From positions 384,001-448,000 of the forward strand of contig JAXGZN010000001.1 of assembly GCA_040776945.1 (NCBI GenBank): DNA of 64,000 nucleotides. The letters run 5' to 3'. Every line of letters begins with the position of its first letter. Position 1 is the first letter of the stretch. Both the position numbers and the translations under genes were made by a program. This document shows positions 17,771-26,936 of the stretch, piece after piece. This DNA is from Methanomassiliicoccaceae archaeon. GTDB taxonomy: Archaea; Thermoplasmatota; Thermoplasmata; Methanomassiliicoccales; Methanomassiliicoccaceae. The notes beneath the pieces were generated by a model. It had not been told where the DNA came from. It made no database searches and worked only from the letters and a program-made list of their open reading frames with translations.

Positions 17771-18796
17771 TCAGAGAGCCATGTATGTCGCGTCGCGCAG
17801 AGCCAGAATATTGTCCAAAGGAGTATCGAACGGAAGCTCACATGCAGGCGCCAAGATCGATGCGTGGTCCTCGTTGTGCAAGGAACGTGCCCTTGAGACC
17901 TCGGCCCTTATCTGCTCCGGAGTTCCGCTATAGATCAGTGCGCGATGATCTATGCCAGCAACGATGCGGGTTCCGCCAAGACGCCCCCTGGCCTCATCGT
18001 ACCCGCTCCAATTCACTGGAATATGCATTGCTTCCGGGCGATACGCTTCTATCTCTTCCAGGATGTACGGCGATTCAGAGCAGTTGTGTACGATCACCTT
18101 CATCCCTTCGCCGTGGATGGTCTTGATCACAACACCGGTATGGTCTAGGTCGAATTCCCGGCAAAGCCCCAGCATGTTCTGGTCAGCATCCGCTAGCGCG
18201 TCGCTGATGAATATCACATCGACCCCAGAGACCGCTGCAAGATGTTTCACTTGCATTTTTTGCGAATCGGTTATTGTTCGAAGGAGCTTGTGCGCAAGGT
18301 CTGGTTCGACCATCTGAGCGATGAGGAGGTTTTCATAACCTATCACGCTCCCGGCGATTATGAACGGTGAACTCATGCCTCCGAGCACAGGGACCTCCTT
18401 CCCAATGGCAACGTTCATCATGGTAGCTGCTTTCAGGGGCACCGACCATTGTGGGTGCGATAAGGGATCGATAGGCTCAAGAAGTTCAACTTCCTCGAGA
18501 TGTATCGGTGTTTCTTTAGGATAGCGAACATCGCTTGAGAAGTGCAGGACCGCACCGAATGCGTTGGCCTCCATCAACAGGTCGCCCCAGCCGGCCATTA
18601 CGTTATCGTAACCGAACACCTTATGGGAGGCTAGGGATAGACGCGCGAACTTATGTGGATCGCAGAACGCCTCTCTCAAGCTCAGCCCAGTTCGCTCGAT
18701 GAGGTGTTGTGCTCCGCCAAGATGTTGGTACATCACTTGAGGCCGCTCTATCGGTTCCCCGTCCAACGCTGCCAAGAACATGTCCTTCGTGTTCAT
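17771..18796 (-). CDS. MtaA/CmuA (UroD-fold) methylcobamide methyltransferase family protein, divergent
   Basis: EANAFGA, Zn ligands IVHNCS and ILAPACELP. Confidence 0.82.
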   Translation of the reverse strand: MNTKDMFLAALDGEPIERPQVMYQHLGGAQHLIERTGLSLREAFCDPHKFARLSLASHKVFGYDNVMAGWGDLLMEANAFGAVLHFSSDVRYPKETPIHLEEVELLEPIDPLSHPQWSVPLKAATMMNVAIGKEVPVLGGMSSPFIIAGSVIGYENLLIAQMVEPDLAHKLLRTITDSQKMQVKHLAAVSGVDVIFISDALADADQNMLGLCREFDLDHTGVVIKTIHGEGMKVIVHNCSESPYILEEIEAYRPEAMHIPVNWSGYDEARGRLGGTRIVAGIDHRALIYSGTPEQIRAEVSRARSLHNEDHASILAPACELPFDTPLDNILALRDATYMAL

Positions 18797-18946
18797 TGAT
18801 CAACCATCCCTCCGTAGAGAACGGAACTCTTTTTCCAATGTTCATATCGAGGGCGTGCCATATCTCGTTGTTGTCGCTTTGACCCTCATCATATGTCGAT
18901 TGTCGGTGATTATTGATACCGCACCAAGCCACATCATGATCTGACC

Positions 18947-19270
18947 TTAACGGCTTTTTTTCCAGCCTTGCTCCCTTATATAATCATCAATTACGTTGGA
19001 CATGTGCGTCGACAGGTTGCGCTCATCATACTTGTTGCCAACATGGTCGACCGTCCGGATCAGGAACTCGTGGTCACATTTTGGGCACCTGGCCTTTGGG
19101 CATGACCTGACAGCTTCAGGACAGCCTCTGCACGCAAAGGTTCGACCATATGTCAACGAGAACTCGAATGAGCATTGAGGGCACTTGAACTTCTTGATCG
19201 CGCTCACCGTCTGCTCAGAGAAACCGTGCTCCCTCATTGCCCTCAAATAACTTGGATCGATATTGCTCAT
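18947..19270 (-). CDS. Small Cys-rich protein (CxxC x3, zinc-ribbon/Fe-S-like)
   Basis: FKCPQC...FACRGCPEAVRSC...RCPKCDHEF; SD-like GGGAG upstream. Confidence 0.75.
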   Translation of the reverse strand: MSNIDPSYLRAMREHGFSEQTVSAIKKFKCPQCSFEFSLTYGRTFACRGCPEAVRSCPKARCPKCDHEFLIRTVDHVGNKYDERNLSTHMSNVIDDYIREQGWKKSR

Positions 19271-19329
19271 GTGACTCCCTGCTGAACTTTCATGGTTTTA
19301 CGTTCGTTCCTTATCATCGCAAGTTGTAT

Positions 19330-19370
19330 AAAATAAAAAATGGGAACAGGAGGAGGGTTGCTCCCTCCTC
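19330..19370 (-). terminator. Hairpin plus U-tract terminator after the mtaA-like gene
   Basis: Minus strand GAGGAGGG-agcaa-CCCTCCTC then ctgttcccattttttatttt. Confidence 0.65.
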
Positions 19371-19403
19371 ATGCTCCAAAGCGTTCTATGACCGGCGTTC
19401 CGC

Positions 19404-20504
19404 TTACTTGCAGACGACCTGGCCATACTTTTTGACCGCATCCACCTGCGCCTTGATGTTCTCAAGCTTGGTGCTAACGCCAGGGGGTACTTCGCAGTTC
19501 GAAGCGATGCAGTACTTGGACTTCAACCCTCGAGCGCATAGTGCTGTTGAGACCTCGTGGCACAGGTCCATGGTGACCTTTTCCATCTTCTCCTTGCTCC
19601 AGCGCACATATCCCTGGGGGTCGATCGTTCCACACAGGACGCAGTTGTCCGCATATCCCTTCTCTATGCAAACCTTGGCCGATGGAGAGCCGGGGATAAG
19701 CGGATAATAGGCCATGGTGTACACATCCGGCTTCATCTCCTTGACCTGGGAGTCCATATGTGGCAGGTCGGCGCAATTGTGTATCGCTAGGGCCATACCC
19801 TCCTTGCGGACCAATTCGTTGAGACCTCCAGCATATTTGTGCTGACCCTCGAACTCATGATATTCCTTGTCACCCAGGCAGGAGTATGAACCCCATAGGT
19901 AGTCCCACATGCAGGCGTTGGGCTTTGCCGTACCCATTCTCTTCACCATTTCTCTGAGGTACTCAGTAAAGACTGCCAGTGCCTTGTGGACAGCGGAGGG
20001 GTTGTTATACAAGTCCATTAGGACCTTCTCTGCCCCTGCACACTGGGTTAGGGACAGCAGCGGACCCTCCAGAAATCCCGATGTGATGGTCTCGGTCTTC
20101 AGAGCCTCCGAGAACAACCTCGTGCCTTCCACGATGACACCCGATCGGCCTTTTGATGGGTCGGGCATCTGGAGCTTCTCATAGTCCTCCGTGCTTTTTA
20201 TCACGGGAACATCCACGAAAGGAGTGTTTTGTTCATCCATGCGGACGTGTGCTCCAAAGTCGCCAGCGATGACCGAAAGGTCCATCAGGCCTATGGTGAA
20301 GTCCAGGTCGAAAGTCTTCTGTCCCTGGATAAACCCGGCAGCGAACTTCTTGGGGTCTGTAGCCCAATCCCTATATAGCATCGTGCCGTCTCCGACCGTT
20401 CGGCGGCTGACACCACAGGCGATGGGATAGGTGGTAAGCCGGTCCACCGGCTCATCTTTCAGAGATGCAACTACTCTCTCCTGGTGAGTCATTTTGTCTG
20501 CCAT
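19404..20504 (-). CDS. MtaA/CmuA (UroD-fold) methylcobamide methyltransferase family protein
   Basis: MTHQERVVASLKDEPVDR N-terminus, DLSVIAGDFGA, EGPLLSL, Zn ligands AIHNCA and IASNCEVP. Confidence 0.88.
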   Translation of the reverse strand: MADKMTHQERVVASLKDEPVDRLTTYPIACGVSRRTVGDGTMLYRDWATDPKKFAAGFIQGQKTFDLDFTIGLMDLSVIAGDFGAHVRMDEQNTPFVDVPVIKSTEDYEKLQMPDPSKGRSGVIVEGTRLFSEALKTETITSGFLEGPLLSLTQCAGAEKVLMDLYNNPSAVHKALAVFTEYLREMVKRMGTAKPNACMWDYLWGSYSCLGDKEYHEFEGQHKYAGGLNELVRKEGMALAIHNCADLPHMDSQVKEMKPDVYTMAYYPLIPGSPSAKVCIEKGYADNCVLCGTIDPQGYVRWSKEKMEKVTMDLCHEVSTALCARGLKSKYCIASNCEVPPGVSTKLENIKAQVDAVKKYGQVVCK

Positions 20505-20516
20505 GTTTTTTCCTCC

Positions 20517-21158
20517 TTATATTGAGGCCTTTACTTTGGCCACGGCCTCCTGGGCGTTCACGGCGTGAAGGTCCGCACCGATCTCTTCGGCGAACTCTTG
20601 GGAAGTGGGCGCGCCGCCAATTATGATCCTTAACTGAGCACGGAGGCCCTCCTCCACCATTGCGTCCACGGTGGCCTTCATCGAGTCCATGGTAGGGGTC
20701 ATCAGGGTGCTCATCGCAAGGACCTGTGCGTTGTTCGCCCTGGTGGTTGTGACGAAGGTGTCGGCCGGAACGTCCCTTCCGACGTCATGCACATTGAAGC
20801 CAGCGGCGGTGAACATGGTCTTCACGATGTTCTTTCCAATATCGTGGACATCCCCCTCAACAACGCCGATGACCATGTCTACCCTTTTCGCCGCTGCCTC
20901 CCTGGGAATGTGGGGCAGCAAAATGTCCAGAGCGCTGTACATCGCGTCAGCGGCGAGCAATACCTGAGGCAGGAAGATGGTGTGAGCAGCGTACTTCTCA
21001 CCAATGATCATCATCCCCTTGATCAGGCCCGAGTCAATCGCGTCGAGCGGCTTCACGCCACTGGAAATGACCTCATTGGCAATCTTGGCGGCATCCGCTT
21101 TTTTTCCGTTTACAACAGCTTGCTCCAATCCTGTCAGTATTTGGTCTTTTTTCGACAT
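20517..21158 (-). CDS. Methyltransferase cognate corrinoid protein (MtaC/MtbC-like), copy 1
   Basis: GVVEGDVHDIGKNIV, STLMTPTM, IIIGGAPTS. Confidence 0.93.
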   Translation of the reverse strand: MSKKDQILTGLEQAVVNGKKADAAKIANEVISSGVKPLDAIDSGLIKGMMIIGEKYAAHTIFLPQVLLAADAMYSALDILLPHIPREAAAKRVDMVIGVVEGDVHDIGKNIVKTMFTAAGFNVHDVGRDVPADTFVTTTRANNAQVLAMSTLMTPTMDSMKATVDAMVEEGLRAQLRIIIGGAPTSQEFAEEIGADLHAVNAQEAVAKVKASI

Positions 21159-22839: not shown

Positions 22840-24084
22840 CCTGTGCCTGATTGCCACGAAGAACACCGAGGCCCCGGCGGCGGTCATAAGGATGGAGAGG
22901 AACGTCACATCCCAGCCGAACTGGAAGAGCATGGCCACTGAGGTGAGGGAGCCCACTATCGCCGACAGAAGATAACCTCGACCCATGCGCATCCCCTTGC
23001 GGGAGAACTGTATCACTGACAGGTTCACCGCCAGGAAGACCATGAATATGGTGAAGTTTGCGACATTGGCGGTGAGCTCGATGCCCCCTAGGAAGGTGAA
23101 CACCAGGGACGCTCCCGTGGTTATAGCTATCGCTGACATGGGGGTCCCCCGCCCCGGGTGCACCTGCGACAAGATGCTGGGAAGGGCCGAGCGCTCGGCC
23201 ATGCCGTAGGCGATGCGCGATGAGGCGATTAGGATAATGAGCACCGTGTTCGCGGTTGCCATCAAGGCTATGGCGGACAGTAGAAGAGAGACCTCCTTTC
23301 CAGATGATGCCATGGCAACATCGGAGAGCGGAGATGTCGAGGTGGCCAGCTCATGATACGGCAGCACGCTTACCACTGAGAGGGCGGTGAGGATGTAGAG
23401 CACCGCGGTGATCAGCAGCGATAGGATGAGGGCGAGAGGTATCGTCCGGGTAGGATCCTTGGTCTCGTCACCGATCTTCACCAGACCCTCGAACCCGATG
23501 AACGCGAAGAAGATCAGGCCTACCGCGGCGATGACCCCTGACGGCCCAGCGGGCGTCTCCAGATAGTCAACATTGCCCAGGAACCCCGCGCCAAGGACGA
23601 TGACTATCACCACGCCCGCCAGCTCGATCATGGTCAGTATTACGTTCAGGATGAGCGATTCCTTGATGCCGATATAGTTGACCACCGCCATGACCAATAT
23701 GAGGACGGTGGCCCCCAGCGCGACCGGGGTGCCGGTCAGCCCATAGAGATAGCCGCCGAAGCCCAGAGCGACAGCGGACCCTGAGATGATGCTAGATATG
23801 AGGACGAGCCATCCTACTAAGAACGCCCAGAAGTTCGAGCTGAAGGCCTCCTTGACGTACACATACTCGGCCCCGCTGGACGGGAACATGGAAGCAAGCT
23901 TAGCGTAGCTCAGCCCGCTGAACAGCGCAATACCGGCGGCGATGGCGAAGGCAAGCCACACTGCGTTTCCGGCCTCGCCGGAAGCGACCCCGATGAGAGC
24001 ATACACGCCGGCGCCGAGTATCGTGCCGACCCCGTACGCCACCGCCCCGAACAGCCCGATCTCCCTGCGCAGTCCCTCTGCCAT
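22828..24084 (-). CDS. APC family amino acid permease
   Basis: LRREIGLFGAVAYGVGTILGAGVY, FFAFIGFE, ETKDPTRTIP, about 12 TM segments. Start at MAEGL. Confidence 0.9.
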   Translation of the reverse strand: MAEGLRREIGLFGAVAYGVGTILGAGVYALIGVASGEAGNAVWLAFAIAAGIALFSGLSYAKLASMFPSSGAEYVYVKEAFSSNFWAFLVGWLVLISSIISGSAVALGFGGYLYGLTGTPVALGATVLILVMAVVNYIGIKESLILNVILTMIELAGVVIVIVLGAGFLGNVDYLETPAGPSGVIAAVGLIFFAFIGFEGLVKIGDETKDPTRTIPLALILSLLITAVLYILTALSVVSVLPYHELATSTSPLSDVAMASSGKEVSLLLSAIALMATANTVLIILIASSRIAYGMAERSALPSILSQVHPGRGTPMSAIAITTGASLVFTFLGGIELTANVANFTIFMVFLAVNLSVIQFSRKGMRMGRGYLLSAIVGSLTSVAMLFQFGWDVTFLSILMTAAGASVFFVAIRHRSQS

Positions 24085-24157
24085 CGGCGGTGTAACGGGC
24101 CCATCGAATAAATACCAAGGTCCGGTTTTTTCTACTAACGATACTATATGGTCGAGC

Positions 24158-24733
24158 ATGGCGGCAGAGATGGCCCCCGGCCAGCCTACGGGCTGGTGGC
24201 GCAGGACGGTCGCAAGAGAGGCCAGGAGGAACACCATAGGTCTCGGAGAGCGCATCGGGAACATCATCGGGGTCTTCTTCGTCCTGCTGTTCTTCCTTGT
24301 CCTTATTGACGTGCAGGTGAGCGGTGTCGGCTTCTTCACGGATGGTTTCGGCCCGGAGGCGCAGTTCCTGCTGTATGGCTCCCTGCTCTACGGCATCTTT
24401 CCCGCCCTGCTGCGCGCGTTCACCGCCGATCGGAACCTGGGGCGACTGGCGGACATAGCGGGCTCGGTGTTCACCATCGCTGCAGGAGCCTATCTGTACC
24501 TGGTGTTCCCCTTCGATGTGCCGTCCCTCATTACCTACATCTTCGGGCCGGCGGGCGACGTGTTCTCCTGGGTAACCAACGATCTGATGAAGACGGTGCT
24601 TCTGTTCGCCGTTGCGGTCTCGGCGATCTCGGCGGCATACAACGTCGTTCTCTATCTATCGGTCAGGGAGGAGCTGAGGGGGCGGCGAGAGGCCGGGGCG
24701 GGAACCTCGTCGTTCGGACCCGGGCGGGCCTGA
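24158..24733 (+). CDS. Hypothetical membrane protein (about 4 TM)
   Basis: Hydrophobic segments and host-like codon usage; divergent from the permease. Confidence 0.65.
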   Translation: MAAEMAPGQPTGWWRRTVAREARRNTIGLGERIGNIIGVFFVLLFFLVLIDVQVSGVGFFTDGFGPEAQFLLYGSLLYGIFPALLRAFTADRNLGRLADIAGSVFTIAAGAYLYLVFPFDVPSLITYIFGPAGDVFSWVTNDLMKTVLLFAVAVSAISAAYNVVLYLSVREELRGRREAGAGTSSFGPGRA

Positions 24734-24769
24734 TCCGCATCATCCTTACCTACTGCGATCGGAGCCGCA

Positions 24770-25639
24770 GGTGGCCTCCTTGCTGCCTCCAGGCGCGACC
24801 CTGATCATCGCTGCCGCGCATCCCACGGCTGAATAGACGAGTACCGCTCCCGCGAGGCGATCTAACTGGCAGTCTCCGCGCCCCATGCAGCGGGGCGGAG
24901 CGTCCAGGACCGCCTTCCTGCCTTCCGGGCAGAGTACCATGAGGACGACCCTCTATGACCATGGTCTTGGGAGGCAATATATTTCGTCGGAAGGACCGAC
25001 CGCAGTGCAAACAGCGGAATAACGCTCTTCACAGCCGTAAGCTCGACCATTGTGTCATAGGCCCCTCCGGCCAGGAAAAGTAGCGCCGCTGCGGTGACGG
25101 TTATCTCAGGGCGAACACGACCTCTCTCGGGACCGGGACCGCGTGGTCCTTTAGCGGAAAGGTCGTCCTCCTCATCTCCTTGGCTGCATGACCGAGACAC
25201 AGGCGTCCCATGTGTTCCTGACACTCACCGGACCGTGCTCCATCAGGAGTCCGGTCTGCATCTTAGCCTTGTGAGCGGTCACCCCGGGCGCACTCAGCTG
25301 CGGGAGGACCGGCCGGCGATGGTCCGCCAGGTCCGCCGGACCAGTGCCCCTTATCTTGGGAACAGTCTCTTCGGTCCCGAAGGCGCCCTTGCCGACCGCG
25401 CACCGCTCATTGATGGTTCTGGCGTCCAATGTTAAAACGTACGCGTCGACGCCTTCGAGATTGACCTCAAGGGCATCCATGCTAAGCGTATGGTCCTTGA
25501 CGCTATCGCCGTGGAGCTGCGGCATGTGGTCTCCCACAATGCAGGCCAGGCATCGACCGATTATGCGTCCGCAGTTACCCTTCTATTTCCAAAAAAGGTC
25601 CCAACGGTGCCGGGGAGCGATCTCGATGGTCGTGCTCAT
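24770..25639 (-). pseudogene. hgcA: Degenerate mercury methylation corrinoid protein HgcA
   Basis: Collinear HgcA blocks across frames: PGLHCGRP; HTLSMDALEVNLEGVDAYVLTLDARTINERCAVGKGAFGTEE; HRRPVLPQLSAPGVTAH...GLLMEHGPV; AAKEMRRTTFPLKDHAVPVPREVV; then hydrophobic TM remnants with LPTK. Contains stops and frameshifts; ends are approximate. Confidence 0.82.
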
Positions 25640-26027
25640 GATCTCCGGTACGATCACACCTGCTCGAGCAGGGAGCCGGCCCTGTCCTTCATTGAGGCCG
25701 CCGTACCTTGACCTTGAGCATGTACGGGCATCAGACCGTTCCGTCCCGCTACTGTGTCACCACCGCCGACCTATCTGCCTGTTACGGTCCGAGCTTATCA
25801 CTGACGCTAATAGGCGGCACGGTCTGGCCTCGTTCGTCCATTAGATCTATGGTCTCTTTTTTCGTCTCTTTTTGCCCATAACAAGGGTCGTTCGGCAACT
25901 CGTTTTATCCTTTGACTTAGGATCGGGCCTGCTTAAGGAGGGTAAAGGGCCGTCTGTTCTCGTTGATCTGATGGCTCAGACCGGTCAAAAGTAATTTAAT
26001 ACCTCGGTCCACCTCCCTAGAGCGACC

Positions 26028-26936
26028 ATGGACGAGACCGACGTGGCCCTCTGCCGCCTGCTCATCTACAACTCCCGCATGCCCTACTCCGAGCTGGGCA
26101 AGGTCCTTGGCATCAGCGTTCAGAGCGCGCACCGCCGAGTTCAGGACCTGATCTCCAGCGGTGTCATAGCCAAGTTTCCCGCTGCGTTCTCCGGCCGGGC
26201 CTATCGGTCCACCTGGGTCCTCGTGCACGGCCGGTCCGAGGCGAACTCGGTGAACGATGTGCTGGATGAGCTGGGTCGGGACAAGGAGATGGACATGGCC
26301 ATGGTGGCCTCCGGCAATTATCTGTACGTCGGGGGCGCGGTTTTGGACCCCGGACGGGTCAACCGCTTCACCTCCTATGTCAAGAAGACCGCCCGATTGT
26401 TCCAACCCCAGATCGGCATGGTCTATAATCCTTCATTGATGGACATAGACGCGGAGGCGGTGGTATATCCCATGGACCTGAGGATCATAGAAGCGCTAAG
26501 GGACGATTCCAGGCGGCCGGTCACCGATATCGCCAAGGAACTAGGGGTGGCCCCTCGGACGATAAACAGGCACATTGAGCGGCTGATGAAGGACAACCTC
26601 GTCCATTTTGCCATCGAATGGTACCCGCAGATGTCCGGGGACATCGTCACCGCCCTGCACCTAAAGGTGCGTCACGACCGGGAGAGGGAGAAGGCGGCAG
26701 CCGCGCTCGTCCGCCGATTGGCGGCCCGTGAGATCATCACTTACAGCTTCAGCGACCGCCCCGACTCGCTCATCTGCATGGTCTGGTCGCCGAGCCTGCA
26801 GGAACTGAATGACCTTATCAGCGAACTGGAGGGCGACCGCATGTACGATGAGATCGTCCCCCATGTGATACTTAACGCCCGCTATTACGAGGGCATCAAG
26901 GGAACCGCTCCTCCCGTCCGGGGGAAGGGCCAGTAA
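26028..26936 (+). CDS. Tandem-domain Lrp/AsnC family regulator
   Basis: Two HTH units: MDETDVALCRLLIYNSRMPYSELGK and DLRIIEALRDDSRRPVTDIAKELG. Confidence 0.85.
   Translation: MDETDVALCRLLIYNSRMPYSELGKVLGISVQSAHRRVQDLISSGVIAKFPAAFSGRAYRSTWVLVHGRSEANSVNDVLDELGRDKEMDMAMVASGNYLYVGGAVLDPGRVNRFTSYVKKTARLFQPQIGMVYNPSLMDIDAEAVVYPMDLRIIEALRDDSRRPVTDIAKELGVAPRTINRHIERLMKDNLVHFAIEWYPQMSGDIVTALHLKVRHDREREKAAAALVRRLAAREIITYSFSDRPDSLICMVWSPSLQELNDLISELEGDRMYDEIVPHVILNARYYEGIKGTAPPVRGKGQ

Follow-up and report, generated by a model that had tools for sequence, protein, structure and literature searches.

Remains of a mercury-methylation gene cluster, hgcC-hgcA-hgcB, in the genome of a Methanomassiliicoccaceae archaeon

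Do the broken reading frames found on the minus strand of a Methanomassiliicoccaceae genome represent the remains of a mercury-methylation gene and, if so, how much of the methylation system was once present at the site, and when was it lost? HgcA is a corrinoid protein, reportedly identified as the mercury-methylation protein by Parks and co-workers in 2013. Apart from hgcAB, no genetic marker for microbial methylmercury production is known, and the patchy occurrence of hgcAB is generally attributed to inferred losses and transfers. The stretch of DNA analysed (64,000 nucleotides, hereafter the window) corresponds to positions 384001-448000 of contig C1 of genome G000, which is of 2.17 Mb in 2 contigs and 99.84% complete. 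A decayed hgcA had been proposed at 24770-25639 from the letters of the DNA. The relic is real, but its true extent is larger: the minus strand from 24746 to 25870 is almost certainly an in-place, non-functional relic of the three-gene cluster hgcC-hgcA-hgcB. The initial span was too narrow because hgcC has decayed too, and the relic reaches upstream to approximately 25870. The cluster is a genuine and old pseudogene cluster and, as a kind of thing, an ordinary one.

What is left of hgcA, hgcB and hgcC

The hgcA relic (24939..25653, minus strand) was delimited by tblastn with the HgcA of 20 relatives, by a codon walk and by NCBIfam models, and comprises codons approximately 1-241 of approximately 325. 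Its longest open piece (25172..25537, minus strand) encodes 121 residues of the corrinoid-binding core, corresponding to positions 52-143 of 325 of the HgcA profile. The best-scoring NCBIfam family for this piece is NF040863 (HgcA_corrinoid; E 5.5e-25, 88.2 bits, for a cut-off of 275), followed by the HgcAB-like fusion model, and no Pfam match was obtained for it. Scanning the whole genome with the HgcA model returned the relic at 84.9 bits, also under the 275-bit cut-off. The tblastn matches of the 20 relatives fall, collinearly, into three blocks, each in its own frame (25645/25495-25226, 25202-25104 and 25098-24898), and chance can be discounted for the HgcA match. When the minus strand of 24600-25800 is translated, one frame contains ...DAYVLTLDARTINERCAVGKGAFGTEETVPKIRGTGPADLADHRRPVLPQLSAPGVTAHKAKMQTGLLMEHGPVSVRN..., the second reads KEMRRTTFPLKDHAVPVPREV and the third holds hydrophobic (transmembrane) remnants. 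The blocks that had been picked out by eye are distributed accordingly, with LPQLSAPGV and EHGPV in one frame, EMRRTTFPLKD in the second and the transmembrane remnants in the third, all collinear with the HgcA of the 20 relatives.

The reading frame of hgcA is not continuous. The codon walk against the closest relative (locus L027) places stops at approximately 25585 (TAG), 25577 (TAA) and 25103 (TAA), five one-base deletions at approximately 25582, 25521, 25497, 25213 and 25094, and a 3-base deletion at approximately 25032, to which a large deletion at the 3' end is added. The MAFFT alignment behind these positions, in which nucleotide identity is 51-67%, fixes them to within a few bases and is least certain over the first 55 codons or so. 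The C-terminal membrane domain, with the NFTG(C/S)(S/T)T block of relatives, is represented by degraded remnants up to codon ~241, the rest being deleted. The relic shares with functional HgcA the corrinoid-binding core, the cap-helix Cys and a position orthologous to that of intact hgcA in seven same-genus loci, but differs from it in having no continuous frame, an Arg in place of the cap-helix Trp and approximately 85 codons of the C-terminal membrane domain deleted.

The cap helix of HgcA carries the motif N(V/I)WCA(A/G)GK, the Cys of which ligates cobalt; the motif is present in the HgcA of all 20 relatives. In the relic the helix (25388..25411, minus strand) is degenerate and reads NERCAVGKGAFG. 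The reverse complement, AAT GAG CGG TGC GCG GTC GGC AAG, translates as NERCAVGK and is followed by GAFG, exactly as originally read. Relatives have N(V/I)WCAAGK, encoded in the same genus by AAC GTG TGG TGC GCx GCx GGx AAx GGx ACC. The DNA alignment with these relatives also bears out that GAG, CGG, GTC and GCC are each a single substitution away from the V, W, A and T codons, so that Val, Trp and Ala have been replaced by Glu, Arg and Val, respectively, around a Cys that is kept.

The large deletion has taken away the 3' third of hgcA, from codon ~242 onwards, together with the 5' 40% of hgcB (codons 1 to ~40), including the first Fe-S motif of the latter, CxxCxxCxxxCP. Its junction lies at 24938..24939 (minus strand), where the MAFFT alignment shows a gap filled by 369-378 bases in seven of seven relatives. 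What remains of hgcB (24746..24938, minus strand; codons ~41-103, the C-terminal 60% or so) is a single open frame of 64 residues with an ATG at the deletion junction, recognized from the HgcB of relatives, from the alignment and from NF040864. The original prediction had held that no hgcB ferredoxin follows hgcA. This is wrong because the segment 24770-24938, earlier taken for the end of hgcA, is hgcB: the stretch 24746-24938 aligns codon for codon with the hgcB of relatives (approx. 65-67% DNA identity), and the open reading frame 24746-24940 matches the HgcB_ferredoxin model NF040864 over profile positions 30-85 of 93 (E 5.2e-8, 32.6 bits, for a cut-off of 99). The piece reads RCMGRGDCQLDRLAGAVLVYSAVGCAAAMIRVAPGGSKEATCGSDRSR, to be compared with RCMECGACQLNCPTGAVQVESGVGCAAAMIKAALTGSKEVTCGPDCCGR of the closest relative, L027. 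HgcB is a 2[4Fe-4S] ferredoxin with two CxxCxxCxxxC(P) motifs and a C-terminal Cys-Cys. In the relic the first motif is deleted, the second has changed from CMECGACQLNCP to CMGRGDCQLDRL, two of its four Cys residues having given way to Arg, and the tail is RSR instead of the CCGR of relatives (Cys-Cys to Arg-Ser), with the stop one codon early.

Upstream of hgcA, the remains of hgcC (25654..25870, minus strand), which encodes a small 'HgcAB-associated protein' of the AbrB/MazE fold, were located by DNA alignment with the seven same-genus loci, by the codon walk against L027 and with model NF040962. In-frame stops are present at approximately 25784 (TAA), 25751 (TAG) and 25733 (TGA), along with small indels. 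The whole-genome scan with NF040962 matched 25707-25856 (31.3 bits, E 3.3e-7), with three stops inside the match, and nothing else in the genome. The intact HgcC of the three relatives that were compared with the same model scored 98-115 bits, for a cut-off of 70, and showed the AbrB/MazE fold. The relic therefore has neither the score nor the open frame of a functional HgcC; it shares with intact HgcC the position upstream of hgcA and differs from it in the three stops and the indels.

The orthologous site and the rest of the genome

The relic lies between two conserved genes. On one side, and convergent with it, is an open reading frame of 263 codons (23942..24733, plus strand), without Pfam or NCBIfam match, which adjoins hgcB in relatives as found by tblastn against nine same-genus loci. 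On the other side, and divergent from it, is an intact gene for a double-HTH regulator of the Lrp/AsnC type (26028..26936, plus strand; Pfam HTH_AsnC-type and HTH_24), which adjoins hgcC in relatives and is 65-76% identical to the homologue found beside intact hgcCAB. Neither the five further open reading frames that overlap the relic on both strands nor a 120-residue minus-strand frame gave a Pfam match, and Rfam returned for 24600-26100 one chance-level match only (E 0.93).

The HgcA model was run over 41 genomes (G000 and 40 relatives) with the 275-bit cut-off, which was exceeded in 20 of them, including all 10 other genomes of the same genus (410-434 bits). Approximately 20 kb around hgcA could be compared in nine of these 10, the tenth (G006) having hgcA on a 2.7-kb contig. 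Seven loci (L023-25, L027, L028, L030 and L031) show the gene order of the window on both sides: GNAT, amino-acid permease, orf263, [hgcB-hgcA-hgcC], Lrp regulator, orf137, flavodoxin, ProB, ProA. Loci L026 and L029 have the same order minus the Lrp, orf137 and flavodoxin genes. Thus, the synteny comparison that had been called for places the relic at the site where seven same-genus loci keep intact genes. The spacing between the flanking genes is 1294 bp in the window and 1736-1762 bp in six relatives; it is 2206 bp in L028, where extra sequence follows hgcB. A homologous Lrp-type gene was found in nine loci. In seven of them it lies beside hgcC and hgcA, with hgcB also present in six and the seventh cut by a contig end, and the two loci without hgc genes are the most distant ones (40-42% identity).

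No match over cut-off to the HgcA, HgcB, HgcAB-fusion or HgcC models was found anywhere in the 99.84%-complete genome, so that the search for an intact hgcAB elsewhere, whether as separate or as fused genes, was negative. The HgcB model does respond to 34 ordinary ferredoxin-like places in G000, as it does in 14 of 14 control genomes, none over cut-off. The sole other match to the HgcA model in G000 (45-46 bits) is a 441-residue CdhE (NF003195, 548 bits). CdhE/AcsC is the large subunit of the corrinoid iron-sulfur protein of acetyl-CoA decarbonylase/synthase; its family is distantly paralogous and shares the corrinoid-binding fold. CdhE, a best match to which would have refuted the original prediction, was rejected as an identity for the relic: no CdhE model was matched at E≤1, the best NCBIfam family being HgcA, and BLASTP of the relic against the CdhE of the same genome was non-significant (E 5.6). 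Descent from hgcA is established by homology to HgcA rather than CdhE and by the orthologous position.

Age of the loss and competing readings

A tree of five flanking proteins (1823 columns) places G000 as the sister of G007 (98/99), within a clade that also contains G002 and G001 (100/100). G007, G002 and G001 all have intact hgcCAB. Since G000 is nested among genomes bearing hgcCAB, the loss would have occurred on its own branch. Three-taxon branch lengths at codon positions 1 and 2 are, for the window, 0.42 in hgcA, 0.41 in hgcC and 0.28 in hgcB (the last on 128 sites only), against 0.04-0.13 for intact relatives. The nucleotide identity of the relic to relatives is 51-67% across sections, that between L027 and L030 being 76-84%. 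The neutral yardstick for the same branch, from the 4-fold sites of six flanking genes, is approximately 0.57. By allowing for an initial constrained phase, and with Jukes-Cantor distances that are near saturation, it may be crudely estimated that neutral drift of the cluster has taken up very approximately 55-75% of the period that followed the split from the nearest relative; the loss would then be old. The branch of G000 is also approximately 2.5-3.5 times as long as that of its sister G007 (protein, 0.12 versus 0.045; 4-fold sites, ~0.57 versus 0.16), and evolution is apparently faster in the G000 lineage.

The most probable history is as follows. The ancestor of the Methanomassiliicoccus-like lineage would have had an intact hgc cluster between the gene of the 263-residue protein and that of the Lrp-type regulator. 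Selection on the cluster would have been lifted after the split from G007, the nearest sampled relative. All three genes would then have drifted, accumulating point stops and one-base deletions and losing essential residues, namely the cap-helix Trp, Fe-S cysteines of HgcB and its C-terminal Cys-Cys. One deletion of approximately 370 bp would have fused hgcA, within its membrane domain, to the central part of hgcB.

It may be asked whether a piece of the relic has been retained for a new use, either as a soluble corrinoid-domain fragment of 121 residues or as a half-ferredoxin peptide of 64 residues. Both pieces are open, the HgcA Cys and the Cys of the HgcB 'GVGCAAA' stretch are kept, drift is lower in the hgcB piece than elsewhere in the relic (0.28 versus 0.42 at positions 1 and 2), and contigs from an RNA library overlap both pieces. 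However, the 121-residue piece lacks the first 55 residues or so as well as the membrane domain and has Arg for the cap-helix Trp, the HgcB piece has lost two of four cluster cysteines and the CC tail, the divergence at positions 1 and 2 is 3-10 times that of intact relatives, and the lower drift of hgcB comes from the 128 sites mentioned above. The contigs in question, from metatranscriptome run X15, overlap the relic at 24698-25047 and 25128-25368, leaving the other parts uncovered, and carry no strand, so that neither strand nor transcription can be read from them; the relic may be transcribed to some extent, and DNA carry-over or read-through would look the same. A new use is very improbable, although it is the alternative that fares best, and decay of the whole cluster, presumably with no remaining function, accounts for the observations.

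Somewhat less probable still is that the relic descends from a divergent hgc copy gained by horizontal transfer, which took the place of a native one or never corresponded to it. Such an origin would agree with a protein only ~46-54% identical to same-genus HgcA and with the HgcA tree, in which no placement of the relic is well supported (none carries a star). Against it are the exactly orthologous site, at which the three genes also keep their order and orientation, and a third-position divergence similar to that of the flanking genes. Furthermore, the rows nearest to the relic in the HgcA tree are all of the same genus, and its end branch (3.37 changes per site; median, 0.16) is long, as neutral drift predicts.

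That the gene is really intact, and that errors of assembly or sequencing created its stops and frameshifts, is very improbable. Some long-read assemblies typically contain erroneous one-base deletions, and a genome in 2 contigs could mean long reads. But contigs assembled from runs X1, X2 and X7, of three independent studies, span 24500-26100 (1601 bases) with 0 differences and 0 gaps; at most one of the three runs can be the source of the assembly. The damage, moreover, is not made of homopolymer slips alone but includes stops by substitution, replaced invariant residues and the ~370-bp deletion, and the relic departs from relatives at approximately 36% of first and second codon positions. 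Thus, the relic is not an assembly error, because the contigs of three studies reproduce it without a single difference.

All sampled words of 24500-26100 are contained in 14 DNA runs from seven studies. The stretch recurs letter for letter in soil, wastewater, activated sludge, anaerobic digester and sludge runs of these seven studies, three of the runs having been aligned, and such a clonal and widespread population is unusual for a neutrally drifting locus.

The least credible of the alternatives, to the point of being negligible, is that the gene is read through by recoding, with TAG as pyrrolysine as in the methylamine methyltransferases of this order or with programmed frameshifts, since two of the seven in-frame stops are indeed TAG (hgcA codon 24 and hgcC codon 56) but four TAA, one TGA, the five one-base hgcA deletions and the large deletion remain, and none of the HgcA matches of the 20 intact relatives contains a stop.

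The loss of the hgc genes at this locus in this lineage, as originally proposed, is borne out by the HgcA family assignment, the orthologous site, the absence of any other copy and the authenticity of the lesions. As no other hgc copy exists in the genome, the organism is predicted, from its genes, not to methylate Hg(II).

hgcC across the order, surveys and related loci

The decay of hgcC along with hgcA and hgcB, when the divergent Lrp-type regulator gene 150 bp away has stayed intact, bears on the function of this small protein. In 2023, hgcC, as the AbrB/PrlF/MazE-like gene that precedes hgcA in archaea, was put forward as a regulator of hgcAB (PMC10349881). At the level of the order, hgcC lies upstream of hgcA in 18 of the 19 loci with enough upstream sequence. 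HgcC over cut-off was found in 53 of 261 genomes of the order, with intact hgcA in 51 of the 53, the two exceptions being G045, whose copy touches a contig end, and G260, in which hgcC lies beside a broken hgcA. Conversely, HgcA over cut-off is present in 56 of the 261 genomes, and five HgcA-positive genomes are without HgcC over cut-off (G011, G101-G103 and G118). These counts are descriptive and carry no test, the 261 genomes sharing kinship. From the co-occurrence (51/53) and the joint decay, it is argued that hgcC has no job outside the hgc system, and the joint decay is independent support for its belonging functionally to that system. Taken together, the relic may be regarded as a natural knockout that marks hgcC as dedicated to mercury methylation, as a part or regulator and not a stray antitoxin, and that makes loss of methylation a recurrent, tolerated and datable event in the order, a reading to which we give about an even chance.

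An internal Cys-Cys (DGKVCC) is conserved in 18 of 18 HgcC sequences (for instance L010, 1215-1481, and L003, 2461-2739), most of which also have an N-terminal Cys-Cys. These vicinal thiols suggest that HgcC may bind or sense a metal, possibly Hg.

The relic had also been thought liable to mislead hgcA surveys. This is a weak worry: at 85-88 bits it stands far from the 275-bit cut-off, and it lacks the cap-helix motif. The universal hgc forward primer, as given in table 1 of PMC5038027, has no site within 3 mismatches in the window; the reverse primer matches at a single place, 24870-24889 within the relic of hgcB, where it has 3 mismatches. It is plausible that only lenient, read-level or E-value-only screens would miscount it, and the practical risk for surveys is small if score cut-offs or a check of the cap helix are applied.

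With respect to the literature, no description of an hgcA pseudogene was found in the titles and abstract openings searched, supplementary tables being outside this scope, and within the same limits an hgc pseudogene is not previously reported; the passage seen of PMC12997803 concerns mbnB, not an hgcA pseudogene. A 2023 study (PMC10083202) infers extensive loss of hgc in evolution from presence and absence on trees, and the words 'pseudogen', 'remnant' and 'truncated' are absent from its text. Here, in contrast, the physical remains are present, in a concrete instance in which relatives keep the genes. The relic is datable physical evidence of hgc loss, 10 of 10 other sampled genomes of the genus having kept the genes. 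PMC5893877 reports Hg methylation by Methanomassiliicoccus luminyensis B10 and the presence of hgcAB in both of the species known at the time. The species studied here is a possible natural negative control for methylation assays with Methanomassiliicoccus, and a methylation potential called from the genus name would be wrong for it.

Two other Methanomassiliicoccus genomes are given as devoid of hgcAB in a 2020 paper (PMC7824343). Isolate MXMAG1 is stated there to be without the hgcAB operon. By tblastn, the deposited Contig3 of Methanomassiliicoccus sp. isolate MXMAG1 (L036, ~1328-2837) contains HgcA at full length (7-325 of 325 query residues, without change of frame), HgcB (1-104 of 104) and HgcC, so that the statement and the deposited contig disagree.

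Sub-cut-off HgcA matches at E≤1e-17 numbered three in the 261 genomes: the relic of the window, a contig-end piece in G014 and a broken hgcA in G260, a genome of another genus (L032 = G260:C30:3000-7500, ~1764-2297). The latter scores 211 bits, has TGA and TAG inside and looks younger; its cap helix, KNVRCAAGKG, shows the same Trp-to-Arg change as the relic. The upstream hgcC of G260 is still open (86 bits), and no hgcB was found by tblastn in the 2.2 kb downstream of the broken hgcA. As this genome is 83% complete in 190 contigs, sequence errors in the broken hgcA are possible. A second hgcA copy in G233 (L033 = G233:C8:8000-12000) gives a match that changes frame near residue 257, and in G228 (L034 = G228:C84:7000-11000) the HgcA tblastn match ends near residue 192 and hgcB follows; both may have frameshifted or divergent membrane domains.

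A third type of weak match to the HgcA model (27-56 bits) is found in many genomes of the family, in open reading frames of approximately 205-220 residues that are distinct from HgcA (~330 residues) and CdhE (~440 residues), such as G014:C16:83829-84221, G019:C48:4167-4583 and G013:C37:11989-12372. No such match was obtained in G000 at E≤10. These frames may encode a short corrinoid-domain paralog. In the window itself, a few kilobases from the relic, 17771-21158 contains two genes of the URO-D family (MtaA/MtbA-like methyltransferases) and one for a B12-binding corrinoid protein, which are kept near the locus in relatives and are consistent with methyl-reducing methanogenesis.
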